Positions 1,075-63,317 of a stretch of 64,000 nt of DNA are shown here, piece after piece. The stretch is taken from IMG/VR virus record IMGVR_UViG_3300024331_000007, positions 192,001-256,000 of that record. The stretch is one strand, 5' to 3'. The notes under the pieces were generated by a model. That model worked only from the letters and a program-made list of their open reading frames with translations, was not told where the DNA came from and ran no database searches. Source of the stretch: a virus (lineage: Duplodnaviria; Caudoviricetes). The stretch's first letter is position 1. Every line of letters starts with the position of its first letter. The position numbers and the translations under genes were made by a program.

Positions 1075-1653
1075 ATGATGGGAGAACTTATGAAAAACAA
1101 AAAGTATGCCGAATACAAACTTTCTGGTTTGTGTGTTCGATGTGGGGCCATTCCTGAGAACGGGAAAACAAGATGCGAAACGTGCAATGCTGAACATCTA
1201 AACTATACTAAACGATCACGAGCGAAAGCCGCCAAAAATGGAAAATGTTTGTATTGTTTGGTTGCCTCCCGACACCAAAATTTTACTATGTGTAAAGACT
1301 GCCTACTCAAGCATAACACAAAAGGAAAGGAAAACTATCAAAAAATGCGGTCGGCTTGCATAGAAGCATATGGAAAACATTGTGTTTGTTGTGGTCTAAA
1401 CAATCCGAAATATCTTCAACTCGATCATATCAATAACGATGGCGAAGCCCATCGTAAAGAAGTATTTCGAGGTAACAGAAAAGGATCAATGTATGCGTGG
1501 GCATACCACAATAATTTTCCTGACATACTACAATTGTTGTGCGGAAATTGTCATCAAGCTAAAACATCTTGTGGAGGTTGTTCAGCATCAGATCATCCAA
1601 AATGGGACGGTCACACAACTTTATTGTATGCCAGTTTTGTTCTCATCCAATGA
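1075..1653 (+). CDS. HNH endonuclease with multiple CxxC zinc-finger modules (antisense insertion)
   Basis: LQLDHINNDG...LQLLCGNCH; repeated CxxC; TATAAATA at 1068-1075; probable start at 1090 after GGGAG. Confidence 0.8.
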   Translation: MMGELMKNKKYAEYKLSGLCVRCGAIPENGKTRCETCNAEHLNYTKRSRAKAAKNGKCLYCLVASRHQNFTMCKDCLLKHNTKGKENYQKMRSACIEAYGKHCVCCGLNNPKYLQLDHINNDGEAHRKEVFRGNRKGSMYAWAYHNNFPDILQLLCGNCHQAKTSCGGCSASDHPKWDGHTTLLYASFVLIQ

Positions 1654-9494: not shown

Positions 9495-10904
9495 TTACTC
9501 TGGCAAAGCATCTTTTTCTCGCTGTCTAGCGTATGCATAGCCCAACGACATTGCTATGGTTCCATCTGGACCGTGCCATTCAAACATACCATCGCATTCC
9601 AAAACTTCTACCCATCCATTGAGCATCAGGTAAAATTCCATCTCTTCAACGGATGAAACAAAATCAAGATTCATCGACATTTTTCTGCCACTCAAATGCA
9701 TGATCTATATTTCGCGTCATAGAGTATTTTTTGAGAATTGGAGAATCTTTTGGCGGGAACCACCACTCAGTAGGATTTCCTGCTGACTGCCGTTCGTGCG
9801 TCCAGCCTAACAGTATCAAGTAAACTTCTTTTTCCTTTTTAGTCACGGCCACAATATTCACCCCTCTCGTTTTTCTTCTGACATCTGTATGCCGCAGTCA
9901 ATCCGAAAATTCCTGAACTGGTTTGGTATGGACAAACATAATACGAACCTCCGAAAGTTTCGCTGCGTTCGTAAACCCATCCACACATTAGCAAATAGAC
10001 GTGCTGCTCCTGATCTTCCTTAGAAAGATTGTCCATCACGGAACCTCGCTAATTTATATGCATCACGCAACAGCAAAAAACCGGGACCGCCGTCTTCATA
10101 CCAAAATTCAAGATGATATGTGGCTTTCGGTTCGTCTTCCTCTAGTCGTTTGAACCCATGCAACATCACATATAATCTTTTTTCATCATCCGTTACAATA
10201 TGCTCATCCATTTTGACGCCGCTCCATTTCCAATGCAACTTCCCGCGTCCAACGGAAACTGGACGGATAATTAGGTTTAGTGTATAAAATTGGAGCGTGA
10301 TCTTTTCGCGGCAACGGAATCCAGCCACAAAACAATAGATAGACGTGTTCTTCTCTTGCTCTGCGTCTCATCGTCCGTCCTATTCGTAGAAAATTCTGAG
10401 GATCAAAAATGCATAGTCTGTATCAACAACCGCATTGCGCGGTGTTTTCCAACGATTTTCCGAAAGGCGTTTCCATCCTGCAAACATGAGATACATTTCT
10501 TTTTCATTTTGGGGAATGTCAGGCATATTATCGCAGACTCCGTTTCTGTGCTCTGTATGCTTTATCAAGAGACAAGGTGTAGCGATACCGTTTGTTGAAT
10601 GGGCTGCCCTCTGGTGGATAATACATAGTATGAGAACTTCCCGGCCAGTAAGAATTTTTAATTGGCAAAACCCGCCAGCCATTCAAAACTAAAAACATTT
10701 CCTTCGCATCATCAGAAAGTTTCACTTCTCTCCAGCTTTTTGCATAGCGAATGCATGTTCGTCGGTCAAGTAATACGAACAAATAGAATATGCGAGAGAA
10801 CCGTTCGGTGGAATCCACACAACAGGAGGACATTCTCTCGGATCATTTTCAATGGTCCATCCATGAAATAACAAATACACAGATTTTTCCTGATCTTCCA
10901 GCAT
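9495..10904 (-). repeat. Tandem array of 7 small paralogous genes (family B: E/K-x-x-YLxLxGW...(Y/F)xPP...A(Y/F)xxQK)
   Basis: EMEFYLMLNGW (9495), KEVYLILLGW (9664), EQHVYLLMCGW (9839), KRLYVMLHGF (10020), KEMYLMFAGW (10380), KEMFLVLNGW (10528), EKSVYLLFHGW (10722). Confidence 0.85.
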
Positions 10905-17981: not shown

Positions 17982-18614
17982 TTATTTCCTTTTATTCTTC
18001 ATCGTATTTGAAATTTTTATCTTTGTTTCTTCTGATCTTTTCTTGCCACTCCAAAAGCCTTTATTTCCTTTTCTACTCAAAGACATTTTCTTTTTTGTTT
18101 CTTCTGAAAAGATTCTACCCTTCAGAGATTTTGACAAGTTTTTCTTATGCTCATTTGAGCGAGGCTTATGTTTGACCCTAAATTTACTTTTTCTTTCTTC
18201 ACTGTATGGTCCAAGTTTTTTACCTTTACACCACGGACTTTTACCTTTCATCGCTTCCGAAAGATGTTTTTTTCTCTCCTCACTATGAGGACCAAACTTT
18301 TTCCCACGAATAGTTCCTGCCAATCCATTTTCTATTTCTAGGTTAGCCCATTCATCAGAATCAACAATGTTATTCATTTCTGAGAATCTGGTTGCAAAAA
18401 ATACTAAGCTATCTCGTTCAGTAAAAAGATGAACCCAAAGAGTCTCTATATCATTTCCATGAATTTTGAGATGCCTCAACCAATATTTTCCTGATCCACG
18501 ATACTTGTATGGATCATTTTTGGTTGTTCTCCCAAAATATTTTAGTCCTGTTTTATTGTGTCGTTTTACATACAGCCATGTTACGGCAACATAATCATCA
18601 TTCAAGATAAGCAT
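17982..18614 (-). CDS. GIY-YIG (Seg-like) homing endonuclease with NUMOD3 repeats
   Basis: WLYVKRHNKTGLKYFGRTT..DPYKYRGSG; HSEERKKHLSEAMKG, SEETKKKMS repeats. Confidence 0.85.
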   Translation of the reverse strand: MLILNDDYVAVTWLYVKRHNKTGLKYFGRTTKNDPYKYRGSGKYWLRHLKIHGNDIETLWVHLFTERDSLVFFATRFSEMNNIVDSDEWANLEIENGLAGTIRGKKFGPHSEERKKHLSEAMKGKSPWCKGKKLGPYSEERKSKFRVKHKPRSNEHKKNLSKSLKGRIFSEETKKKMSLSRKGNKGFWSGKKRSEETKIKISNTMKNKRK

Positions 18615-22768: not shown

Positions 22769-23191
22769 TTACGATAGTTTTGTGAGTACAATGTTTAAAT
22801 ATTCTCCAACTGTGGAGAAACAAGAATGCTCATATACGATTGATTCGTCAAGTCCAGTAACTACGGGTATTCTATCGAAATCATTGCGTATTAACCAAAG
22901 ATCAACATCAGACTCATATCTACAAGTGAATTTCCAAATATTCACGTCATCAATAGGTCCATACGCCCACCCAAACCCATAAGCAGCGGGTCGTTGGTGT
23001 GTAAGTTTTACAGGCGCAGAAATATCCAGTGGTTGAAAGCGCAAACCCAACAGTTGTGTCACTGTATCCCAATTTCTTTGCTCATTGCGTCGGAAGTCCC
23101 ATTCTTTCTGAGATAGTGATGAACCCTGTGGCTTTGAATTTCTGTGGATATTAGTCTTTGTAATGTCCAGTAAGGAGCAAATTTCGATCAT
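22769..23191 (-). CDS. Conserved late hypothetical protein
   Basis: TATAAATA-5 nt-ATG. Confidence 0.6.
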   Translation of the reverse strand: MIEICSLLDITKTNIHRNSKPQGSSLSQKEWDFRRNEQRNWDTVTQLLGLRFQPLDISAPVKLTHQRPAAYGFGWAYGPIDDVNIWKFTCRYESDVDLWLIRNDFDRIPVVTGLDESIVYEHSCFSTVGEYLNIVLTKLS

Positions 23192-23302
23192 ACCCCTATT
23201 TATAGATGATTTTCGCGGTTATGAGTTATTTTTTGCGAGTTCGTATAAATAGATTCATGGGGAGCAAAACTCCCAAATTCATTAGCAGTAACGGAGAGTA
23301 TC

Positions 23303-23795: not shown

Positions 23796-23827
23796 AAAAG
23801 GACAAGCATTAAATTGCTTGTCCTTTT
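23796..23827. terminator. Intrinsic terminator
   Basis: AAAAGGACAAGCA-ttaaat-TGCTTGTCCTTTT. Confidence 0.85.
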
Positions 23828-23847
23828 TATTTGTGTTATAATATTTT

Positions 23848-24597
23848 ATGCCTAAAAAGTTATCTCAAGAAGAGTTTATTGCCCGTCTTCATGCAACCCG
23901 AGGAGATAGGTATGACTATTCTAAAGTAAAATATAAAGGAAGCAAGAAACCAATAACTATTTTATGTGCTACACATGGTCAATTTGAACAGTTAGCAACA
24001 AGTCATCTCAACGATAAACAAAACTGTCCAAATTGTTCTATTCGCGCCACCAGTAATACTACCGATTTCATAAGAAAAGCCAAACAAATACATCCACTTC
24101 AAAAATACAACTACGATAAAACACACTATCTCAATGCTAGAACACCTGTAATTATTACTTGTGTTATACATGGAGATTTCCAACAAAAACCAAACGACCA
24201 TCTATCAGGTTATGGATGTTCAAAATGTAATATCTCAAAAGCAGAGACATATATAACAAATATCCTAATAAACAAAAATTTAACCTTTACGCCGCAATAC
24301 AAAATATCTTCATGTAAAAACATACACCCATTGCCATTTGATTTTGCTATTCTGGAAAATAACGTAGTTTTAGGCTTGATAGAGTTCAATGGCAGACAGC
24401 ACTATGAACCGATATGGGGTAAGAATAATCTTAAAAAGACTCAAATCAATGACAAAATCAAAAAGGAATACTGTCGTCAAAACAATATTCCTTTTCTTGT
24501 AATCCCATATACTAAAGAAAAATTTATTACAGAGAATGTTAATAAATTTCTAAAAACTATCGTCGAATGCCGTAAAAATACAAATCATGACTACTAA
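23848..24597 (+). CDS. Homing-endonuclease-like protein (zinc-module repeats + PD-(D/E)XK), paralog of 6371-7321
   Basis: RYDYSKVKY, ILCATHGQF, FDFAI...LIEFNGRQHY. Confidence 0.8.
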   Translation: MPKKLSQEEFIARLHATRGDRYDYSKVKYKGSKKPITILCATHGQFEQLATSHLNDKQNCPNCSIRATSNTTDFIRKAKQIHPLQKYNYDKTHYLNARTPVIITCVIHGDFQQKPNDHLSGYGCSKCNISKAETYITNILINKNLTFTPQYKISSCKNIHPLPFDFAILENNVVLGLIEFNGRQHYEPIWGKNNLKKTQINDKIKKEYCRQNNIPFLVIPYTKEKFITENVNKFLKTIVECRKNTNHDY

Positions 24598-29391: not shown

Positions 29392-30330
29392 TTATTGTCC
29401 TCGTGAAGTCAAAAATTGAATAACTTTTTCTTCCATACAGTCTTGTTCTGTGTATGGAATAATAAGCAAGGGAATATTATTCATTTTGCAAAATTTTTTC
29501 TTTTTTGAATCGGAAGACTGAATACTTTTGAACATCTGATTCATTGTTCTATTTTTACTACCAAAAGTTTGAGGAACATAATGCTGTATACCGTGATATT
29601 CAATCAAACCCAATAGATTGCTATTACTAAATATTGCAAAATCAAATGGCAACGGCTTTTTCTTTTTACATTCTGCCAATCTGTATTGATGTTCAAATTC
29701 TACCTTGTGCTTCTTTAGAATCGTAACCATCTTCTTTTCGCCCACCGAAAAAGAACATCTGGGGCAACCCTTGCCATATAAATGATTGTTTGGTTTCTGC
29801 GTGAACTCTCCATGCAATTTGCAAATGATCGATACATTCATCTTATTTCTGATATATTTTGTGTTACTGTAATCGTAAAGATTTCCATGAACCAAATTGG
29901 CTTTTTCAATAAATACTGGGGTGTCCATTGTTGCCGTTCCACCACATTTATCACATCCTTTACCATTCAAATGTTCATTAGGGGTTTGGAAGAAGTGACC
30001 ATGTTGTTTACATAGAATAATAACCTTTGTGCTGGAATTTTCATACTGTACTTTTGAGTAATCAAATGTATTGTTGTGAGACAAGATAGCTTTTCTAATA
30101 AAGTCTTCAGTAGTAGATTTTTGGGCGATGCTTCGTGATTCTACTGCGCATTTATGGCAACCACTTTTGGTTAGATGATTGCTGGGTGTTTGTTCATAAT
30201 ATCCATGTAACTTACAACCAATAACGACTTTCGTATGCATTGCAACATAATTGACACAATCATACAAAAACACGTCGCCATGTTGTCGTTGCGCTTTCAC
30301 AATGAATTCGTTATTTGTCAATCTCTTCAT
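29392..30330 (-). CDS. Homing-endonuclease-like protein (zinc-module repeats + PD-(D/E)XK), paralog of 6371-7321
   Basis: Three YDYS/CKxHG modules; FDFAI...LIEYHGIQHY. Confidence 0.8.
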   Translation of the reverse strand: MKRLTNNEFIVKAQRQHGDVFLYDCVNYVAMHTKVVIGCKLHGYYEQTPSNHLTKSGCHKCAVESRSIAQKSTTEDFIRKAILSHNNTFDYSKVQYENSSTKVIILCKQHGHFFQTPNEHLNGKGCDKCGGTATMDTPVFIEKANLVHGNLYDYSNTKYIRNKMNVSIICKLHGEFTQKPNNHLYGKGCPRCSFSVGEKKMVTILKKHKVEFEHQYRLAECKKKKPLPFDFAIFSNSNLLGLIEYHGIQHYVPQTFGSKNRTMNQMFKSIQSSDSKKKKFCKMNNIPLLIIPYTEQDCMEEKVIQFLTSRGQ

Positions 30331-31726: not shown

Positions 31727-32548
31727 CTATGCAGTATGTGCAACATTATTTGGTTTTTTAAAATACCAACCTTCAGGAGGAAACGGAATATCCTTTCGAA
31801 TCCTCCTGAACTTCCCCTCGATATTATAGATTGGCTTGCTTTCTTCTCGTAAGGCGGAGGCTCTAACCAACGAAGATGAGGCCAGCAAAGGATCACACTC
31901 TTCATAAACCAATCGTTCAAAATCGAAATACAAAATTTTCTTCTCCTTAATTTTCCTCATCTGTATTCGTTCCGCAACCGTCCATCGTGGTTTACCTTTT
32001 TGCTTTCCAGAAATAGCTTTGCTTGTTTTTAATCGAGACGCTGTGCTCCTTATTTTATACTTCCTACCAACAGTGGTGGAAATCAGTTCTCCAGATTTCA
32101 CACGAGGATCAGTAGTCATGCATCTTACTGTACTGCCAAATTTATCCTTATAGACTGCATATCCTTTATTTTTCTCACTCATCAGAGTGTATGCTTCTTT
32201 CCTAAGCCTAGCGAATGTTCTACTGGATTTAAGAACAATATTTCCTCGACTGCTATTTTGATTTTGCATAGCGGCAAATGCAATAGTCTGCGAACCTCCA
32301 TACGCCTTCCATAACAACCAATGAGCTATAAAATGCTGTCTGTAGGTAAGATTTATCCTGTTCCAAGGGTTTTCTCGAAAACTTTTGTATTGTGGAAATA
32401 GGTCTGTGGCCTTTGGACAAATATGGTGAGATTCCGTTTCCAACAGATAATGATTATCTTTCCAAGACTCAATACACCTCAAATAACGATTCAGGTAGTG
32501 TTCGTTGTGAGGTTTAAGTTTTAAAAGTTTCTCAATTAGGATTTCCAT
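31727..32548 (-). CDS. HNH homing endonuclease
   Basis: ESHHICPK...NRINLTYRQHFIAHWLLWK; ATAAATAGTTGTATG start context. Confidence 0.8.
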   Translation of the reverse strand: MEILIEKLLKLKPHNEHYLNRYLRCIESWKDNHYLLETESHHICPKATDLFPQYKSFRENPWNRINLTYRQHFIAHWLLWKAYGGSQTIAFAAMQNQNSSRGNIVLKSSRTFARLRKEAYTLMSEKNKGYAVYKDKFGSTVRCMTTDPRVKSGELISTTVGRKYKIRSTASRLKTSKAISGKQKGKPRWTVAERIQMRKIKEKKILYFDFERLVYEECDPLLASSSLVRASALREESKPIYNIEGKFRRIRKDIPFPPEGWYFKKPNNVAHTA

Positions 32549-32583
32549 ACAACTATTTATGATAACACCTCAGAACTGTTCAG

Positions 32584-34990: not shown

Positions 34991-35020
34991 TATTTTCTCC
35001 GAGAAAGGCAAAACTTTAGA

Positions 35021-35086
35021 TAAATACTGTTGGTCGCGGATAGCAGTCCCACCAACCCTATCGCTTTTGAGGAGCGCCAGCACATG
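35021..35086 (+). ncRNA. Structured 5' leader motif, copy 1
   Basis: TAAATA-ct-GTTGGT-CGC-GGAT-agca-GTCC-C-ACCAAC-cctat-CGCT-tttgagg-AGCG-ccagcac-ATG. Confidence 0.7.
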
Positions 35087-35827
35087 TCTATTTACCCTGA
35101 TAAACTTTCAGAACTTTTACCATCTTCAAAATATCTTCGCGCATATACCAAAATTTGCAAACTGGCTCAGGACCGAGCAAATACCCGTAAACAGGCAAAA
35201 TTACAATTTGGTTATGTGGAAGGTCATCATATTCTACCAAAATCTTTCAAATGTGGCGGCGAAAAAGATAAATCAAACTATGTGTATCTAACGGCTCGCG
35301 AGCATTTTATTTGCCACAAACTATTAGTTTTTGCAACAAAATCTACTAGATTTTATTATTCCGCATCTGCCGCCCTTGCTGGTTTTATGCAATCTTCTTC
35401 ATTTCACCAACGACCTATTCTAACTTCTCACAACTATCAATTTGTTAGGAAATGCATATCACTATCTAAAAAAGAAAAACAAACTGGAAGAAAGGTATCA
35501 GACGCTACTAAAATTAAGATGAGTTTGGCTCAATTAAAACGACACAGACTAAATCCACGAACAAAAGAGCAATGCGAAAATATATCAAAAGGGCGAACAG
35601 GTATCAAAGTATCCAAAGAAGGTTGCTTGGCAATATCTTTAGGCAAAATGGGGGCTATTCCTTGGAACAAAGGGACTAAAATGGATGATACAACCAAAAT
35701 GAAAATTAGCAAAAATCGAACAGGTATAAAACCCAAAAAGATCAAATGTCTACATTGTGATGTGATAGCCGCCCCAAATATGTTAGCGAGATTTCACAAC
35801 GATAGATGTAAATTAAGAAATTTGTGA
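35084..35827 (+). CDS. HNH homing endonuclease with NUMOD3-like repeats (antisense insertion)
   Basis: YVEGHHILPKSF..GGEKDKSNYVYLTAREHFICHKLL. Confidence 0.85.
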   Translation: MSIYPDKLSELLPSSKYLRAYTKICKLAQDRANTRKQAKLQFGYVEGHHILPKSFKCGGEKDKSNYVYLTAREHFICHKLLVFATKSTRFYYSASAALAGFMQSSSFHQRPILTSHNYQFVRKCISLSKKEKQTGRKVSDATKIKMSLAQLKRHRLNPRTKEQCENISKGRTGIKVSKEGCLAISLGKMGAIPWNKGTKMDDTTKMKISKNRTGIKPKKIKCLHCDVIAAPNMLARFHNDRCKLRNL

Positions 35828-36742: not shown

Positions 36743-37548
36743 ATATTTTCCTTACCATCCAGCACCAGTATAACATCGTAGCCTTGCGCTCTACAAGCAG
36801 CTAATTTGGCCTTGTTTTTGTTCTCTAACAATTCATCTTCTCCATTCTTATTCCAAGTCCAAGACGACTTTACTTCATATATTGTGTTTCCGATTTGAAA
36901 ATCACTAATGTATAGGCGACGGCTATTATCGGTAGGGTCAACATACCAAATGCTTGGACCTCTCTTTACATTTTGTAGAAGCCAATCAAATCCAAATTTT
37001 TCTTCTAATTGGAATAGAAAGGAACATTCGTGGGTTCCTTGATAGGTTAGCGGGGAATCCTTATAATTCAAAATGGGACATTGGGTGCTGTTTTTCCAAG
37101 GACTATCCATCCAATGCTCTTTCATAATCTGAGCTAATTTTTCATAGTGTCCGTTTTTGATTCTAGTCTGCGTTCCCTTGATTTGAGAAGATTTGGTAAT
37201 ACCCAATCGAATACGAGTTTTCAAAGACTTTGAGGTTCTGTCGTCATGATTCAATAATGAAAATTCCTTTCGTTTTCCAGCACAAGAATTGAAATGAGGG
37301 GAGCAGCACTTTTTGCCATTCTTGAACAAATATTTTGCGATAGAATTACAACCAAACTCGCATAACTCCTCTGTTTCAATTGCGGTAGAGTATGGATTCT
37401 TATGTTTATGTGTTGCGATCTTTTTAGCTGGACATTTTAGGAAATGTGATGAGCAGCATTTGCTGCCCGATATAGAAAGGTAGTTAGCAGTTCTTGAACA
37501 GCCATAATCGCATAAATCAGTGGTGGAAATTTTCTGAAAGGTTTTCAT
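36733..37548 (-). CDS. PD-(D/E)XK (TnsA-like) endonuclease with two Cys-rich N-terminal repeats
   Basis: LCDYGC...KCCSSHFLKC / LCEFGC...KCCSPHFNSC; YISDFQI...IYEVKS. Confidence 0.75.
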   Translation of the reverse strand: MKTFQKISTTDLCDYGCSRTANYLSISGSKCCSSHFLKCPAKKIATHKHKNPYSTAIETEELCEFGCNSIAKYLFKNGKKCCSPHFNSCAGKRKEFSLLNHDDRTSKSLKTRIRLGITKSSQIKGTQTRIKNGHYEKLAQIMKEHWMDSPWKNSTQCPILNYKDSPLTYQGTHECSFLFQLEEKFGFDWLLQNVKRGPSIWYVDPTDNSRRLYISDFQIGNTIYEVKSSWTWNKNGEDELLENKNKAKLAACRAQGYDVILVLDGKENIWQ

Positions 37549-37592
37549 ACAACTATTTATGCATTGAGAAGTATTTTCTGTGCATAGTGTAT

Positions 37593-43604: not shown

Positions 43605-43809
43605 ATAGTTCACCCAAATCCTCAGATGCAGTATTTAAGACAGTATGATAACCCAAAGGAAGTTTATCCCCATCTAACACCAGCGCACCTTTAAAAACAA
43701 ACCCAGTGTTATTGTAGTTGTATTTTTTACCAACTTGATTAAGCACAACCGAGAACCCCTTAACTGGCTTCTGGTCACTATATTTTGGAAGTATGTCAGT
43801 TATTTTCAT
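43591..43809 (-). CDS. Late hypothetical protein
   Basis: ATAAATA-5 nt-ATG. Confidence 0.55.
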   Translation of the reverse strand: MKITDILPKYSDQKPVKGFSVVLNQVGKKYNYNNTGFVFKGALVLDGDKLPLGYHTVLNTASEDLGELYARR

Positions 43810-43852
43810 GGGTATATTTATGCTTTAATAACCGTGCCGTACTCGTCAACTA

Positions 43853-46095: not shown

Positions 46096-46113
46096 CCGAC
46101 CTCCAAACGAAGA

Positions 46114-46184
46114 TAAATATCTATACAGTTCGCGAACCTCGTGAGTTCCAACTGCTCTAATGCCTTGGAGGGCAATCAGCTATG
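46114..46184 (+). ncRNA. Structured 5' leader motif, copy 2
   Basis: TAAATA-tctata-CAGTT-CGC-GAAC-ctcgtga-GTTC-C-AACTG-ctctaa-TGCC-ttggag-GGCA-atcagct-ATG. Confidence 0.8.
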
Positions 46185-46925
46185 CGTATTTATGATACAG
46201 CCTCATTCATCGAAAAGGCCAGAATCGTACATGATTCGAGTTACGATTATTCCAAAGTAAAATATTTGAAATCATCACAGAAGGTAAAGATCATTTGCCC
46301 GAAGCATGGTGTCTTTATGCAAACCCCCAACAATCATTTGGCAGGTCAGGGTTGCATGCAATGTGGTTTTGTGACTCGTTCGTCTGTTCATTTTTCTAAT
46401 ACTGAATCATTTATAGAATCTGCCAAGATTCCGCATAATAAGAAATACAAATATGACCAAACAATTTATCTTCATAGTGAAAAACCAGTTGTAATTTTAT
46501 GCCCAAAACACGGAGAATTTTCGCAAAAACCTTTTAAGCATTTGCAAGGACAAGGTTGTCCTAAATGCCGAAATAGCAAAGGTCAAGATGCTATAGAACG
46601 ATTTTTGTTGGATTCTAATGTCAAGTATAAGACAGAAGTAAGATTTGATGATTGTAAAAATAAACGATCCTTACCATTCGATTTCGCAATTTATAAAGGA
46701 AATGCATTGATTGGTTTGATAGAATTTCAAGGCCAACAACATTTTCTAGCAGCGCCTCATTTTGGTGGCGTAAAGCAACTCGTTTACATACAGAAAAATG
46801 ACCAGATCAAGAGAGATTATTGTATATCCAAAGATATTCCACTACTGGAGATAAAATTTACCAATCTTAGAACTATCAAAAAGATACTTTCAAATTTTCT
46901 AATTAGATGCCAATATCAATATTGA
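46182..46925 (+). CDS. Homing-endonuclease-like protein (zinc-module repeats + PD-(D/E)XK), antisense insertion
   Basis: YDYSKVKY, IICPKHGVF, FDFAI...LIEFQGQQHF. Confidence 0.8.
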   Translation: MRIYDTASFIEKARIVHDSSYDYSKVKYLKSSQKVKIICPKHGVFMQTPNNHLAGQGCMQCGFVTRSSVHFSNTESFIESAKIPHNKKYKYDQTIYLHSEKPVVILCPKHGEFSQKPFKHLQGQGCPKCRNSKGQDAIERFLLDSNVKYKTEVRFDDCKNKRSLPFDFAIYKGNALIGLIEFQGQQHFLAAPHFGGVKQLVYIQKNDQIKRDYCISKDIPLLEIKFTNLRTIKKILSNFLIRCQYQY

Positions 46926-48475: not shown

Positions 48476-51400
48476 TTAAACTCCCACGACAGGTGGGTTT
48501 ATAAACGAACTGTTTGGAAACTTGATATAGATAGCTCCATCGTCATCATTTAAAAATACATCGGATGTATCAAAGAACGTACCAATATCTGTGAAGTTGG
48601 TTGTTCCTTCAGTAATGATAACAATGCAATTCTCAGTCGTCAAATCGAAACTGGATTCTGTAGTTAAATCATCGTCGGGAACACCCTGATCAAACTGAGT
48701 TAATTCAGATGACCACCATCCTGCAACAATGACCACATTGACATTTGCAAAGGCATTTCCAGTTGGCAATAAGCCCAGATTAGCAAGAGGAGTATTATTT
48801 CCGTCATAAAGAATAAATGGACTGCCAGTGATGTTCTGGATGTATAGTTCATTGTCTGCTCCTATTCCTGCTTGTATACCCTGTATGTCATAGCTATTGA
48901 TGATGGCGGCAACGTTAGATATATCGGCAATATTTGATGGCAAATTAACAACTATATTTCCAGTGTATGAATAAGTTCTGGGCGTGAGGTCTGGAGCGAA
49001 GGCAATAGGAGCGGCTGGATTAATCGTGAAGCTGCTATTGGCAGTCAAATTCAAGCTATAGGCATAACCCGCAGATGTTGTCTCAGAGATACCATTGGCA
49101 TTATTGACCAAAAATGAAACAGGCGTCGATGATACTACTGGGAATTTTCCATTGTTATTGGCATTGGTCATACCCTGAATAACCATCTGTGTTCCAGCAG
49201 GAACTGCATTTCCTGTGTTCGTTTCAATTACAGCATAATTTGCGTTACTGCCAGAAACAGTCACAGCAGAAATCTGGGCTGTAATATTCTTCGCAACTAA
49301 TGTTACGCGGGGACGCGGGTCCCAATTCTGGCTGTATCCCGCATTCCAAACCAATCTATCTGTAATTGCGTCGATAGTCTCCACAGCAGGACCAATAGTG
49401 TTATAGTATTGCTGTAGATAGAACATGATTCTCTTCCCTGTTCCCGGTTTGCAATACAACAGAGGAATTGCAGGCACAAAACCCAGAATTTGTCCATCTG
49501 GTTGAATGTCCCGCATCCAAGAAGGCAGGAAGTTATAGTCGAAACCATTTAAATGGGTATTCAACTGGTGAATCATGTTCGGTAATGTTGCAGGGAAGGC
49601 GTTTTTTGGACCCGCTGGAGTATTATAACTAACGGGACCAGAAAAAGTCTGATAACTTGTATTTGTGAACTCGTCCAAAGGTTCAATATAGATAACCTCG
49701 TATCCTTCCGAGGAAGATCGCGCCCACTTCAGACCATTAAATAGATATTTCTTATTATGGAAGTATCTTTCAATTGCTTCCTGAATGGTATCTGGGATTT
49801 CTGGGCTGATTCCATAGGCCAATAGCATTCTAACATGCTGAGCAATACCAAAATAGAAGTCATCCTGACGGAAGATATCATCATTGGACACGATAGACTC
49901 ATCATTCAATGGAGTGAACAGAGTATTCATATCTGTATCGCCCAAAAGAAATTCCAGACTTAAATTAGTTGGTGGTGCGGCAGTAATACTGTTTGGTATA
50001 GTTGTTTTCAGGTTTAATGTGAAGTCTCTCGTTACCTGAATGAGCGTCTGGAAGTTCTCAGTGACAACATTGGCACCACTAAGATCAGTTTCAGTGAAAT
50101 CGATGGGGCGATTCTGTCCAATTGACGCTGTAACTGTAAAATCAAAGGTGCGATCAAAGATTGTTTGATTCTGGTCAACAATTGTTGTCTGATCCATAGA
50201 AAAATATTGACTGGATGGCAGACCAACAATAAGTCCATTGGACAATAGCTGGCAACCAGCAGGAATCGTACCTCCTGTTAGCTCATACTTAATAGGATTG
50301 GTCGGTGTAATTCTGCTGCGACCCAGAATTGTAACCTTTGGAATGGCCTGATAGTTATGACCAGTCGTATCCACGATAACATTGGATAATGTACCGTTGA
50401 AAATACGCGCTTCCGCTGTGGCTGTTACAGACTCACCCGCAGGTTCGAATCCTACTGTTGCTGTATCATAGAATCCACCTCTGGTTAGGATATTAACTTG
50501 ATCCACTCCGAAGTCCAAACCGAATATAGCATTAAGAGCATTGGCATTTCCAGTGGAATTAGTCCAGATAACAGTTAGTCCATCAGGTAATTTAGTATAT
50601 TCCTGCACAATTGTTGGGTCGATTGTAACCTCAGTAATTGTTCCTGACGCACTTACGTTAGACACAATGATATTGGCACTGTTCGCACTAATTCCACCGG
50701 GAACTGTGAAGATAGAACCGTTCGCAAAAGCGTTACCACCATTAATAATCTCAACACCAACCAATTTTAATGTGCAATTAGCTGTTGCTGTTTGGATAGA
50801 AGGAGCAGTGAAAGGCTCAATGATTGAGGCATGAACGTCCAGACTGCTTGGAACGCCAGCAAAGAGGTTTCCAAGGTTATTCTGGCTATCCCAGACAATG
50901 CTATTGTCTGCTGGATTCTCAACAGTCAGTGTGCAAAAGGCTGTTGTTTGTAAATGACTATTCGTAAAGACGTTTGCACTCTTATAGGCAATGACTTGGA
51001 ACTCGTATGGAGTAGGCAAAGTCAGATCGCGGTTAATATAACCAGACAACCACCCTGTAATTGGATTGATCGTGACATTGCCCGGTATAGCATCTCCATT
51101 AATAAGGAGATAATTCAGTGTATTATCTTCGAAGTCTTCAGTGCGAAACTGGTAAAGGATCGAGTCACCGTCCACAACACCCAAATTGATGTTGGCAAAG
51201 TCCGAAGAACAAACATTCAGACCGAAAGTAGCATCCAAAAAGATTGGATCATGATACACAGGACCAGAAACATTTGCGTTGGCATTATTAAACAGGTCTT
51301 GGCGCTGAATTGTCAGACTGAAATCCGCAGTATTTTGTGCATCGTACTGGACTGTGAAGTCGTATGTCCGAGAATTGGCGCTGTGAGGCAGGTTTGGCTT

Positions 51401-51931
51401 GCCAGCCTCTTTGTTTGGATAGATGAAACCAGAATCGTACAGGACAACAGGGCTTACATAGCCTGTAATGTCGCCTGTCTCTGGGTTCAAAACAAGTTGG
51501 TCTGGAAGACTACCAGAAACGATAGTCATATTCGTCGGCCAGTTTGGTGTGGCAGTTAGTGGGGCAACTGTGGAATACAAATATTGACCATCTGGAAAAA
51601 TGCCCAGATCGGAATTAGGAAACAAATATGAAGGTTCTTGATCTAATACATTAAAAGAGAAGGCTCTATCCGAAATATTTCCTACATCAGTAGATGCTCT
51701 TATTGTAAAGGTAGACAAACCAGTTATTGCATCAACAGAAGTAGACCCCCAAATTGATGGAAAAGGTAGACTTGGTTGATTAAAGGGGCCAGTGATTGTT
51801 AAGCCAATAGGAAGATTTCCTGCTATAATAGAAAAAGAGTTAGCTCCAGAACATGAAATAGCTACATTGCAAGGTTCACCTTTTGCAATGTTTCCTAATG
51901 ATCCAGCGGGGGTTGTCCAGACGATAGCCAT
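48476..51931 (-). CDS. Baseplate wedge-like large structural protein
   Basis: MAIVWTTPAGSLG, repeated putative Ig (G.LP.GL.L...G.I.G) modules, FDxTTF-like tail; TAAATA-5 nt-ATG 51931. Confidence 0.7.
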   Translation of the reverse strand: MAIVWTTPAGSLGNIAKGEPCNVAISCSGANSFSIIAGNLPIGLTITGPFNQPSLPFPSIWGSTSVDAITGLSTFTIRASTDVGNISDRAFSFNVLDQEPSYLFPNSDLGIFPDGQYLYSTVAPLTATPNWPTNMTIVSGSLPDQLVLNPETGDITGYVSPVVLYDSGFIYPNKEAGKPNLPHSANSRTYDFTVQYDAQNTADFSLTIQRQDLFNNANANVSGPVYHDPIFLDATFGLNVCSSDFANINLGVVDGDSILYQFRTEDFEDNTLNYLLINGDAIPGNVTINPITGWLSGYINRDLTLPTPYEFQVIAYKSANVFTNSHLQTTAFCTLTVENPADNSIVWDSQNNLGNLFAGVPSSLDVHASIIEPFTAPSIQTATANCTLKLVGVEIINGGNAFANGSIFTVPGGISANSANIIVSNVSASGTITEVTIDPTIVQEYTKLPDGLTVIWTNSTGNANALNAIFGLDFGVDQVNILTRGGFYDTATVGFEPAGESVTATAEARIFNGTLSNVIVDTTGHNYQAIPKVTILGRSRITPTNPIKYELTGGTIPAGCQLLSNGLIVGLPSSQYFSMDQTTIVDQNQTIFDRTFDFTVTASIGQNRPIDFTETDLSGANVVTENFQTLIQVTRDFTLNLKTTIPNSITAAPPTNLSLEFLLGDTDMNTLFTPLNDESIVSNDDIFRQDDFYFGIAQHVRMLLAYGISPEIPDTIQEAIERYFHNKKYLFNGLKWARSSSEGYEVIYIEPLDEFTNTSYQTFSGPVSYNTPAGPKNAFPATLPNMIHQLNTHLNGFDYNFLPSWMRDIQPDGQILGFVPAIPLLYCKPGTGKRIMFYLQQYYNTIGPAVETIDAITDRLVWNAGYSQNWDPRPRVTLVAKNITAQISAVTVSGSNANYAVIETNTGNAVPAGTQMVIQGMTNANNNGKFPVVSSTPVSFLVNNANGISETTSAGYAYSLNLTANSSFTINPAAPIAFAPDLTPRTYSYTGNIVVNLPSNIADISNVAAIINSYDIQGIQAGIGADNELYIQNITGSPFILYDGNNTPLANLGLLPTGNAFANVNVVIVAGWWSSELTQFDQGVPDDDLTTESSFDLTTENCIVIITEGTTNFTDIGTFFDTSDVFLNDDDGAIYIKFPNSSFINPPVVGV

Positions 51932-51936
51932 ATCAA

Positions 51937-51942
51937 TATTTA
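51937..51942 (-). promoter_or_regulatory. T4-like late promoter TAAATA (exemplar of at least 15 copies)
   Basis: Also at 7327, 13467, 17650, 18628, 21399, 23197, 32554, 37554, 43815 (minus) and 1070, 23247, 35021, 46114, 51954, 62633 (plus); precedes structural and endonuclease genes. Confidence 0.75.
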
Positions 51943-51953
51943 GCAATCGCTGA

Positions 51954-52022
51954 TAAATACAAATGCCAACCGCGAGTCTGAACACTCCGTTGGCTCTAAT
52001 GTCAGAGAGGACATCAGCTATG
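51954..52022 (+). ncRNA. Structured 5' leader motif, copy 3
   Basis: TAAATA-caaat-GCCAAC-CGC-GAGT-ctgaac-ACTC-C-GTTGGC-tcta-ATGTC-agagag-GACAT-cagct-ATG. Confidence 0.8.
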
Positions 52023-52670
52023 AATATTTATATCGCTCCCTTTTCTCAACTACTGATATTCTATGTGTATTCCTATTTGAGAGAAGACGGAACTCCATAC
52101 TATATAGGTAAGGGCATTCGCGATAGGGCATTTAATCCACGACATCGCCTAAAACCAAAAGACCATACCCGTATCCAAATAATTTCTGAAAATATGAATG
52201 AAGCTGATGCATTTCAATTAGAAATGTTACTTATTTATTTTTATGGTAGGTCTGACTTGAATAATGGTATACTCCATAATCTCACGAATGGCGGTGATGG
52301 GTTGTTTGGTCATGTACAAACCGACGAAACTAAAAAGAAAAGATTGCCGTCTCTAATAGGAAATAAGAGGGCCTTAGGTAATCATCACAGTGAAGAAACA
52401 AAGAGAAAGCAACGAGTATCAAAAATAGGTGTCAAAAATCCATTCTTTAATAAAACTCATACTAAAGAGGTTATAAAGAAAATTTCACTAGCTAATAAAG
52501 GTAAAATTGTTTCTAAAGAAACTCGCCTAAGGATGTCGGAAGCACAAAAGAAAGTTCCTAGAAAAGGAACAGTTTCGCCAAACAAGGGAAAAACTATGAC
52601 CTCTGCTCAAAAATTGAAAATCAGTTTGGCTAAGAAAGGAACAATCCCTTGGAATAAGGCAAGACGCTGA
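52020..52670 (+). CDS. GIY-YIG homing endonuclease with NUMOD3 repeats (antisense insertion)
   Basis: FYVYSYLREDGTPYYIGKG...LHNLTNGGDG; HSEETKRK, HTKEVIKK. Confidence 0.85.
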   Translation: MNIYIAPFSQLLIFYVYSYLREDGTPYYIGKGIRDRAFNPRHRLKPKDHTRIQIISENMNEADAFQLEMLLIYFYGRSDLNNGILHNLTNGGDGLFGHVQTDETKKKRLPSLIGNKRALGNHHSEETKRKQRVSKIGVKNPFFNKTHTKEVIKKISLANKGKIVSKETRLRMSEAQKKVPRKGTVSPNKGKTMTSAQKLKISLAKKGTIPWNKARR

Positions 52671-62413: not shown

Positions 62414-62632
62414 GACTCAAACTGCCTCATGATCTTGAAGTTTAATTCTTTCTTCAATTTCACCCAAACGCCATCTTCTGTTAAAGACCGTTGTAATTTG
62501 TCGTAATCTCCGAGTCCAAGTGATCCAACATATCGGACACCATCAGAAAATTTCAACGAAACAACTCTCGCATCTGGACACAACTCTTGCACGAATTGTT
62601 GGTCTTCGCTCATTAGAAACGACTTTCTATGC

Positions 62633-62705
62633 TAAATACTTATGCAGTTCGCGAGTCTCGTGAACTCCAACTGCCCTAACGCCATTTCGAGGCAATCAGC
62701 ATATG
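62633..62705 (+). ncRNA. Structured 5' leader motif, copy 4
   Basis: TAAATA-cttat-GCAGTT-CGC-GAGT-ctcgtga-ACTC-C-AACTGC-cctaac-GCC-atttcga-GGC-aatcagcat-ATG. Confidence 0.8.
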
Positions 62706-63317
62706 AATACTTATCCCAATAATAACACATTTTACGTTTACGCATATCTTCGCCAAAATGGAACACCATATTACATAGGTAAAGGAAACGGAGATAGGGC
62801 ATTTCGTAATTATCGTAAACGATGTGTTCGTCCTCCAAAAGATAAATCTCGTGTAGTCATCCTTTTTGAGAACTTATTTGAACCAGCTTCCTTTCAAATA
62901 GAGATGCTATTTATTCGCATGTTTGGTCGTATTGATCTTGGAACTGGGTGCCTTCATAATAGAACCAGCGGCGGTGAAGGCATCAGTGGTTATCGTAGAA
63001 GTCCAGAATCAATCGCTAAACAAATTGAGACTATGAAGCGAAACAACAAGAAACAAAGTAATGCAACCATTCTGAAAAGAATAAACACTAGAAAACTGAA
63101 TGGAACCTTGAATCCTAATACATTAGATTCACTGCATAAAACAAAAATCAAACGAATTGCCAATGGATCGTATAAGCGCACACCAGAAGCTATCGCTAAA
63201 CAGATTGCTACGCAAAAACGAAATGGCACTAATAAAAGGACTCCAGAATCTATCGCCAAAGGATTAGCAACAAAATTAGCCAGAAAATCAATAACGATAG
63301 ACAATCCTACCCATTGA
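62703..63317 (+). CDS. GIY-YIG homing endonuclease with three (K/R)R(S/T)PE(S/A)IAK repeats (antisense insertion)
   Basis: FYVYAYLRQNGTPYYIGKGNGDRAF...LHNRTSGGEG. Confidence 0.85.
   Translation: MNTYPNNNTFYVYAYLRQNGTPYYIGKGNGDRAFRNYRKRCVRPPKDKSRVVILFENLFEPASFQIEMLFIRMFGRIDLGTGCLHNRTSGGEGISGYRRSPESIAKQIETMKRNNKKQSNATILKRINTRKLNGTLNPNTLDSLHKTKIKRIANGSYKRTPEAIAKQIATQKRNGTNKRTPESIAKGLATKLARKSITIDNPTH

Follow-up and report, generated by a model that had tools for sequence, protein, structure and literature searches.

The stretch of DNA analysed here (the window) comprises 64,000 nucleotides (nt), bases 192001–256000 of the 359,890-base-pair (bp) IMG/VR virus record IMGVR_UViG_3300024331_000007, and belongs to a jumbo phage. 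The sequencing run that contains the whole stretch carries the label soil metagenome, and the gene content of the phage includes an NAD-dependent DNA ligase, an RNA ligase, PhoH and a clamp loader, the last being 53% identical to its closest clamp loader, the counterpart in the Pseudomonas jumbo phage PA5oct; a clamp-loader search of IMG/VR found no close relatives. Genes in the window lie mostly on the minus strand. Four genes for homing-endonuclease-like proteins run antisense to their neighbours, as an earlier reading of the letters alone (the sequence-only reading) had noted, and each is preceded by a copy of the same short cassette. Here, we describe the parts and spread of this cassette, show that its fold is selected on the strand opposite the nuclease gene and that it moves together with that gene, and weigh the proposal that it encodes a small antisense RNA.

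In every copy the same parts follow one another: ATAAATA or CTAAATA, a bulged 11-pair helix, a second hairpin that includes the Shine–Dalgarno sequence, the start codon, and then TATTTA, with a conserved length of ~80 bases (Table 1). The sequence-only reading had described a three-stem motif at four sites, with TAAATA at 35021, 46114, 51954 and 62633 and ATG at 35084, 46182, 52020 and 62703, and all four are real and lie at those places. Its stems do covary: RNAalifold recovered both the first helix (P1/P1b) and P2 from the four copies, with compensatory changes at 9 of 14 pairs, and in larger alignments 92–99% of cells were paired and none of 500 shuffles reached the observed score. Two details of the proposed anatomy had to be redrawn. 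Within the supposedly invariant CGC of the first helix, G12 and G14 are paired and covarying (GC/AU/CG), leaving two bulged C as the only fixed bases, and the CTAA(Y) “linker” and “CAGC” are the two arms of one extended helix.

We built a covariance model from the four window copies (R1) and found 16 copies in the phage genome at E values of 5e-19 to 3e-7, four of them within the window and each followed by an open reading frame (ORF) of 106–248 residues; shuffled sequences were expected to yield 0.00 matches to a cassette sub-pattern. Five further jumbo-phage records contain 12, 13, 3, 8 and 6 copies. Two pattern scans of IMG/VR, one with a pattern spanning the cassette and one covering its 3’ third only, matched at least 119 and at least 120 stretches respectively, and at least 239 together. 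From the 3’-only pattern, 73 new viral loci gave 80 model matches with the helix present in nearly all, while the same pattern run on prokaryote genomes as a control gave 80 loci of which only 1 had the helix. The prokaryote matches are therefore mostly chance, and no host can be named from them. The collection overall holds 189 distinct copies at 169 loci, and the core genes flanking cassettes on these contigs are 25–75% identical to those of this phage, indicating that the carriers form a deep lineage.

The family appears to be new. No Rfam 15 match reached the gathering score across the window, and none was found at E ≤ 1 for three cassette loci on both strands, in keeping with the novelty that the sequence-only reading had proposed. 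Megablast and blastn searches against 50,697 cultured-phage records gave no match, nor did R1 on Synechococcus phages S-SRM01 and S-N03, the closest protein relatives of one nuclease, or on Pseudomonas phage PA5oct. The single true cassette from a prokaryote bin (locus L315) lies on a 2214-bp contig, CAIYAG010000327.1, binned with an uncultured Bacteroidetes metagenome-assembled genome; the contig is probably mis-binned phage DNA and gives at most a weak hint of a host.

An A·C mismatch on one strand is a G·U wobble on the opposite strand, and the mismatches in the cassette are strongly asymmetric. Across 127 distinct versions of the first helix read on the gene strand, the interior non-Watson–Crick pairs comprised 40 A·C versus 1 G·U, and where the second base of the “CGC” pairs, the states were G-C in 94, A-U in 15, A·C in 18 and G·U in none. 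P2 likewise showed 46 A·C versus 4 G·U in an anchored analysis; P2 columns were misaligned in the model-fitted alignments, whose U·G counts were disregarded. Ascertainment by a model should favour G·U over A·C, so this bias opposes the result rather than producing it. When the minus strand was aligned with MAFFT, unfitted to any structure, and then folded with RNAalifold, 98.8% of cells paired and 13 of 16 pairs had compensatory changes. The alignment revealed a CUGAU/AUUAG helix with G·U at one pair in 41 of 41 copies and covariation between A-U and U-A (CTAA/TCAG versus CTAT/ACAG). For the 64-nt core, the minus strand had the lower minimum free energy (MFE), by ~5 kcal/mol, in 184 of 195 rows, and dinucleotide-shuffle z-scores averaged −2.05 on the minus strand versus −0.94 on the plus strand, the minus strand being lower in 165 of 187 copies. 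The fold is thus selected on the minus strand, opposite the nuclease gene, and the cassette provides a worked example of wobble asymmetry reassigning a “leader” motif to the other strand.

The cassette also moves with the nuclease gene. In two pairs of filled and empty sites (L020/L122 and L208/L182), promoter, cassette and gene are present or absent together, and ten identical helix sequences each precede two or more different nuclease N-terminal clusters; both observations bear out the suggestion of a portable module shared by unrelated nuclease families. By their N termini, the proteins encoded downstream group into 26 clusters (HNH_3, HNH, Pfam GIY-YIG, further GIY-YIG-like, zinc-finger and others). 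Of the 17 cluster representatives scanned, most, including all large clusters, matched a nuclease family, and the cargo genes with a family match are nearly all homing endonucleases, so the association with nucleases proposed from the window holds in viral metagenomes. For the window itself, the families assigned earlier were upheld in part: NUMOD3/HNH for the gene at 35084–35827 and zinc fingers for that at 46182–46925 were recovered, while the GIY-YIG assignment of the genes at 52020 and 62703 rests on a sequence motif and PHROG “homing endonuclease” matches only. PDB sequence searches with two of the nucleases were uninformative.

The fold is framed by two hexamers, the promoter hexamer TAAATA and TATTTA, each the reverse complement of the other. 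Their conservation was counted in an “unbiased” set of 41 cassette copies, TAAATA being part of neither model R1 nor the search patterns. TAAATA lies upstream of all 41, mostly as ATAAATA and sometimes as CTAAATA, and is separated from the helix by 2–5 nt in 37 of them, usually by 5 nt; TATTTA lies 0–2 nt past the start codon in 40 of 41. Three copies retain TATTTA in a different frame (ATG ATA TTT or ATG TAT TTA), which indicates a constraint on nucleotides rather than on an M-x-I-Y peptide, and TATTTA is absent from the cassette-less nuclease genes of this genome. ATAAATA is under-represented in the phage genome, and outside cassettes 34% of ATAAATA and 42% of CTAAATA sites lie no more than 40 nt upstream of an ORF, versus 2–7% for control heptamers. 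Judged by this placement, the two heptamers behave as promoters genome-wide, and the phage encodes a gp55-like late sigma factor. T4 late promoters read TATAAATA, with transcription starting ~6 nt downstream; with the same spacing, the nuclease mRNA would start at about the first base of the helix.

Read 5’ to 3’ on the minus strand, the putative transcription unit would consist of (A/G)TAAATA, a spacer of ~5–7 nt, hairpin A, a 2-nt AG/GG linker, hairpin B and a U-rich tail. Hairpin A would be closed at its base by CUGAU/AUUAG and would present an anti-Shine–Dalgarno sequence, its loop being the complement of GGAG/AAGG, and hairpin B would have ~11 pairs and two bulged G. The tail beyond hairpin B is pyrimidine- and U-rich, with 6.8 T per 12 nt versus 4.05 on the plus side, and has the form A-Y-Y-U-W-U-A-U-U-U-A-U, the complement of the nuclease promoter.

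We propose, with about even confidence, that the cassette encodes a cis-antisense RNA of ~70 nt over the nuclease ribosome-binding site, transcribed from the convergent TATTTA promoter. It would be a portable expression unit with two faces, carried along with the free-standing homing endonuclease genes of a broad group of uncultured, T4-related (jumbo) phages. One face would be the late-type promoter ATAAATA/CTAAATA on the gene strand, driving the nuclease mRNA from roughly the first base of the large helix; the other would be that hexamer on the opposite strand, read from TATTTA in codons 2–4 and facing back from ~65 bp away. The resulting RNA would be fully complementary to the nuclease 5’ untranslated region (UTR), with the start codon probably left uncovered given the predicted start site, and would hold nuclease expression down by blocking the ribosome-binding site, by forming a duplex for RNase III, and/or through promoter collision. 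What we infer here is the activity of TATTTA as a promoter, the two ends of the minus-strand RNA, and repression of the nuclease. More speculatively, and in our view improbably, such cassettes might form an exchangeable family of “self-restraint” small RNAs (sRNAs) expressed from convergent late promoters, with the complement of each promoter serving the other transcript and with multicopy inhibition, or silencing in trans of a rival phage’s incoming nucleases during co-infection, as possible outcomes; if true, RNA-level control would be part of phage–phage competition by homing.

Several observations weigh against antisense control. In half of the copies in this genome the minus-strand heptamer is GTAAATA (giving a TAC codon), which is found near ORF starts in only 16% of cases versus 34–42% for ATAAATA/CTAAATA and so looks like a weaker promoter, and the copy at 62708 has an altered hexamer, TACTTA, one change from the sequence that its paralogue at genome position 181630 retains. 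The tail starts with A, often followed by C, which would make hairpin B at best a moderate intrinsic terminator, and a simple terminator scan did not call this bulged helix. Minus-strand genes start 10–40 nt past the cassette at many loci, and one empty-site pair shows the element inserted between two overlapping, translationally coupled minus-strand genes, where an efficient terminator would be costly. The minus-strand RNA could accordingly be part of, or a leader for, transcripts of neighbouring genes. Pairing of TAAATA with TATTTA, as in T4, could explain the conservation of TATTTA without a promoter. Finally, folding each of the four window copies singly gives only weak significance (z from +0.3 to −3.1, the lowest being the minus-strand fold of the 51953–52031 copy at −23.2 kcal/mol), so the case for the minus strand rests on comparison across copies. 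These other readings can coexist with antisense control.

The alternative that fares best, although we regard it as unlikely, is that the minus-strand structure serves the flanking phage genes, either as a terminator or insulator or as a donated promoter and stabilising 5’ leader for the next minus-strand gene, and thereby lowers the cost of inserting into an operon. It draws on the orientation of the elements, since 76 of 144 loci are antisense to both neighbours versus 27 co-oriented (13 of 16 are antisense in this genome), and on the insertion between overlapping genes described above. In ~29% of loci, an ORF with a Shine–Dalgarno sequence begins on the minus strand 10–40 nt past the cassette. 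A near-consensus sigma70-like promoter, TTGACA-N17-TATAAT, adjoins the A-rich upstream edge of the cassette, beside the U-rich tail, on the minus strand of 23 of 78 IMG/VR copies and fires away from the nuclease gene, an arrangement of terminator and promoter reminiscent of the PeSL (promoter-early stem-loop) elements of T4-like phages (loci including L049, L029, L034, L046, L047, L058, L060 and L069); none of this genome’s copies has one. By contrast, the cassette has the same features, and is equally conserved, when neighbours are co-oriented or mixed or when no minus-strand gene follows (39 of 175), which argues that its function is intrinsic to the element. Neighbours vary from locus to locus while the cassette travels with the nuclease gene, and a plain terminator would need no hairpin A with an anti-Shine–Dalgarno loop.

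We consider silencing of read-through transcripts in the manner of T4 distinctly unlikely. Here AUAAAUA would pair with UAUUUAU past the start codon and close a three-way junction hiding both the Shine–Dalgarno sequence and AUG, while transcripts begun at the late promoter would lack the 5’ arm and be translated, in the way of T4 e, I-TevI and mobE. Complementarity between the two hexamers is perfect in nearly all copies, their pairing appears in the MFE structure of 107 of 177 units folded alone, and T4 offers a precedent with a late promoter in the 5’ arm (PMC3014915). However, the hexamers do not vary and so offer no covariation, the positions flanking them do not covary, and the proposed helix, of 6–7 A-U pairs, would have to close a large multiloop. 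Plus-strand read-through should be rare, since a little more than half of the genes lie antisense to both neighbours, and selection of hairpins A and B on the minus strand would be left unexplained.

The sequence-only reading had proposed a ligand- or protein-responsive switch within the plus-strand late transcript, or else a mobility signal in single-stranded DNA or RNA. We find a structured leader in the nuclease mRNA, whether such a switch or a stabilising 5’ hairpin combined with one masking the Shine–Dalgarno sequence, hard to credit. Its location between promoter and start codon would suit a leader, as would the 5-nt spacing that puts the predicted start on the first helix base; 92–96% of plus-strand cells pair, and P2 contains part of the Shine–Dalgarno sequence. 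Yet the plus-strand mismatches are almost only A·C, one pair of the extended helix is A·C in every copy (the invariant G·U of the minus strand), and plus-strand folds barely beat their shuffles in the z-scores above. We see no sign of a ligand pocket or of self-cleavage, both raised earlier, and no Rfam riboswitch or ribozyme family matched the three cassette loci at E ≤ 1. The minus strand does carry GCUGAU beside a three-way layout, and a hammerhead ribozyme was considered and rejected: the GAA/UH core elements are absent and no Rfam ribozyme matched. A role at the DNA level, with a hairpin extruded from single-stranded minus-strand DNA for recombination, repair priming or cassette mobility, is very improbable: G·T is the best-tolerated mismatch in DNA hairpins, so that wobble asymmetry alone cannot separate RNA from DNA, and the cassette is a junction at which nuclease cargo is exchanged, but no recombinase or HUH enzyme is associated with it, the family-matched cargo consists of double-strand-break nucleases, and a promoter-like hexamer and a U-rich tail bracket the fold exactly, as fits a transcript.

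Table 1. Cassette features and downstream genes in the window (window coordinates).
Feature	Position	Strand	Evidence or details
ATAAATA, T4-late-type promoter of nuclease gene	46113–46119	+	sequence; TAAATA in 41/41 unbiased copies
Hairpin B (P1 + CGC + P1b), ~11 pairs, two single-base bulges	46126–46154	−	covariation, mismatch asymmetry, minus-strand MFE
Hairpin A (CTAA linker + P2 + ATCAG of CAGC)	46157–46179	−	minus-strand RNAalifold; inner stem covaries
TATTTAT, codons 2–4 of nuclease; minus strand reads ATAAATA; candidate convergent promoter	46187–46193	−	conservation
Homing-endonuclease-like gene, 247 residues	46182–46925	+	treble-clef zinc fingers (DUF4379/DUF723); PHROG 559/9084
Cassette copy	35020–35095		ATAAATA 35020–35026, hairpin B 35029–35056, hairpin A 35058–35080, ATG 35084, TATTTA 35089–35094
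Homing endonuclease gene, 247 residues	35084–35827	+	NUMOD3; PHROG 655/12434 HNH
Cassette copy	51953–52031		ATAAATA 51953–51959, hairpin B 51965–51994, hairpin A 51996–52017, ATG 52020, TATTTA 52025–52030
GIY-YIG-type homing endonuclease gene, five NUMOD3 repeats, 216 residues	52020–52670	+	
Cassette copy	62632–62714		CTAAATA 62632–62638, hairpin B 62644–62674, hairpin A 62676–62699, ATG 62703, TACTTA 62708–62713
GIY-YIG-type homing endonuclease gene, 204 residues	62703–63317	+	weak GIY-YIG match

The cassette marks a subset of the nucleases of this phage, 16 of roughly 23. Homing-endonuclease-like genes without it lie in the window at 23848–24597 (+), 29392–30330 (−), 17982–18614 (−) and 1075–1653 (+), and at genome coordinates 9630–10214, 95359–96039 and 290135–290743; some have a plain ATAAATA promoter and a short leader, and the gene at 23848 sits behind a strong terminator-like hairpin at ~23799–23831. 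At four other window sites, all on the minus strand (32548–32560, 37548–37560, 43809–43821 and 23191–23203), and at ~10 more in the genome, ATAAATA stands exactly 5 nt before an ATG with no Shine–Dalgarno sequence between them. With a T4-like start ~6 nt past the motif, late mRNAs from such sites would be leaderless.

The cassettes at window 62632–62714 and genome 181622–181705 are near-identical paralogues that precede different GIY-YIG genes and are distinguished by T to C in TATTTA and by G/A in hairpin A; this suggests that the cassette alone was recently duplicated or gene-converted. At genome 103339–103403 (L008) lies a decaying copy whose promoter hexamer is ~10 nt from the helix, whose helix contains CACG, and whose ORF is only 106 residues long and has no nuclease match. 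Elsewhere, ~20 of 189 copies are followed by an ORF of fewer than 100 residues; some of these are cut at a contig end, and others are complete and look like remnants.

A tRNA-like sequence lies behind a sigma70-like promoter on the minus strand of one locus (L073), ~40–115 nt past the cassette, which suggests that some cassette-bearing nucleases are located beside phage tRNA genes. In the window, an ORF of 1169 residues at 48476–51985 (−) has no PHROG match, and its annotated GTG start overlaps the cassette at 51954–51985, so its true start is probably further downstream. The RNA ligase ORF at 1611–2630 (−), of 339 residues, matches HNH endonuclease PHROGs over residues ~10–68; either a fusion or a remnant overlapping the ORF could account for this stretch.

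Phage homing endonucleases are known to be controlled by the timing of their promoters, by mRNA hairpins that mask the ribosome-binding site and, in the case of I-TevI, by autorepression, and control by antisense RNA has so far been known for transposases (IS10, IS200) and type I toxins. If antisense control by the cassette is confirmed, a portable antisense-RNA gene on hundreds of GIY-YIG, HNH and other nuclease genes would constitute a third layer of control, and would help to explain how 16 or more free-standing nucleases, most of them inserted antisense within blocks of genes, can be tolerated in one genome. With ~190 distinct examples and strong covariation, the cassette also defines a new family of structured RNA, ready for Rfam-style curation. 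While this type of control is known from transposons, the cassette family, its phage late-promoter architecture and the link to homing endonucleases appear to be undescribed. Two features of antisense sRNAs were found here: the antisense strand has a conserved structure, and it is complementary to the translation initiation region, the latter by construction.

The nearest parallels come from insertion sequences. IS200 encodes art200, a cis-encoded sRNA of ~90 nt opposite the tnpA 5’ UTR, and tnpA has a stem-loop that sequesters its Shine–Dalgarno sequence (PMC4513863). As in IS200, the cassette belongs to a selfish element and would encode a structured small RNA on the strand facing the 5’ UTR and initial codons of that element’s own enzyme gene, with mirror-image stem-loops that could start loop–loop pairing and an mRNA hairpin that masks the Shine–Dalgarno sequence. 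Unlike IS200, to which it has no sequence or Rfam relationship, its cargo is a homing endonuclease rather than a transposase, and its candidate promoters are late-type, convergent and ~65 bp apart, the sense promoter doubling as the antisense tail. RNA-OUT of IS10/Tn10 is a 69-nt antisense RNA forming a single long hairpin, of which the 5’ 35 nt pair with the target RNA-IN (PMC5006887). Here too, the antisense promoter would lie inside the 5’ end of the gene and face outward, driving a stem-loop RNA complementary to the translation initiation region, and with 16 copies per genome, the multicopy inhibition of IS10 might have a counterpart here. In contrast to RNA-OUT, the cassette has two hairpins, and its stem sequences differ between copies, which would limit cross-talk.

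Among phages, the T-even genes e, soc, 49, I-TevI, I-TevII/III, mobE and segB combine a late promoter with hairpins that sequester the ribosome-binding site (PMC3014915). In the cassette, likewise, a homing endonuclease gene is immediately preceded by a T4-type late promoter, its translation start carries promoter-complementary sequence, and a hairpin touches the Shine–Dalgarno sequence. However, the T4 hairpin exerts its effect in read-through transcripts, on the mRNA strand, whereas the cassette helices are selected on the opposite strand, and most cassette genes are antisense to their neighbours. PeSL elements of T4-like phages join an early sigma70-type promoter to a stem-loop terminator and flank assorted ORFs (PMC2839356, PMC4122927). 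They share with the cassette the character of short conserved promoter and stem-loop modules, repeated within a genome and marking modular gene exchange; the cassette differs in its late-type hexamers on both strands, its two specific hairpins and its tie to nuclease genes, and a sigma70-like promoter accompanies only the minority of copies counted above. CfrI of cyanophage S-PM2, as summarised in PMC2984593, is an antisense RNA of ~225 nt that spans an endonuclease gene and psbA at a single locus. Both involve an antisense RNA, in our case a predicted one, that overlaps a homing endonuclease gene in a T4-like phage, and the cassette is distinguished by its ~70-nt size, its portability and its position at the 5’ end of many nuclease genes.

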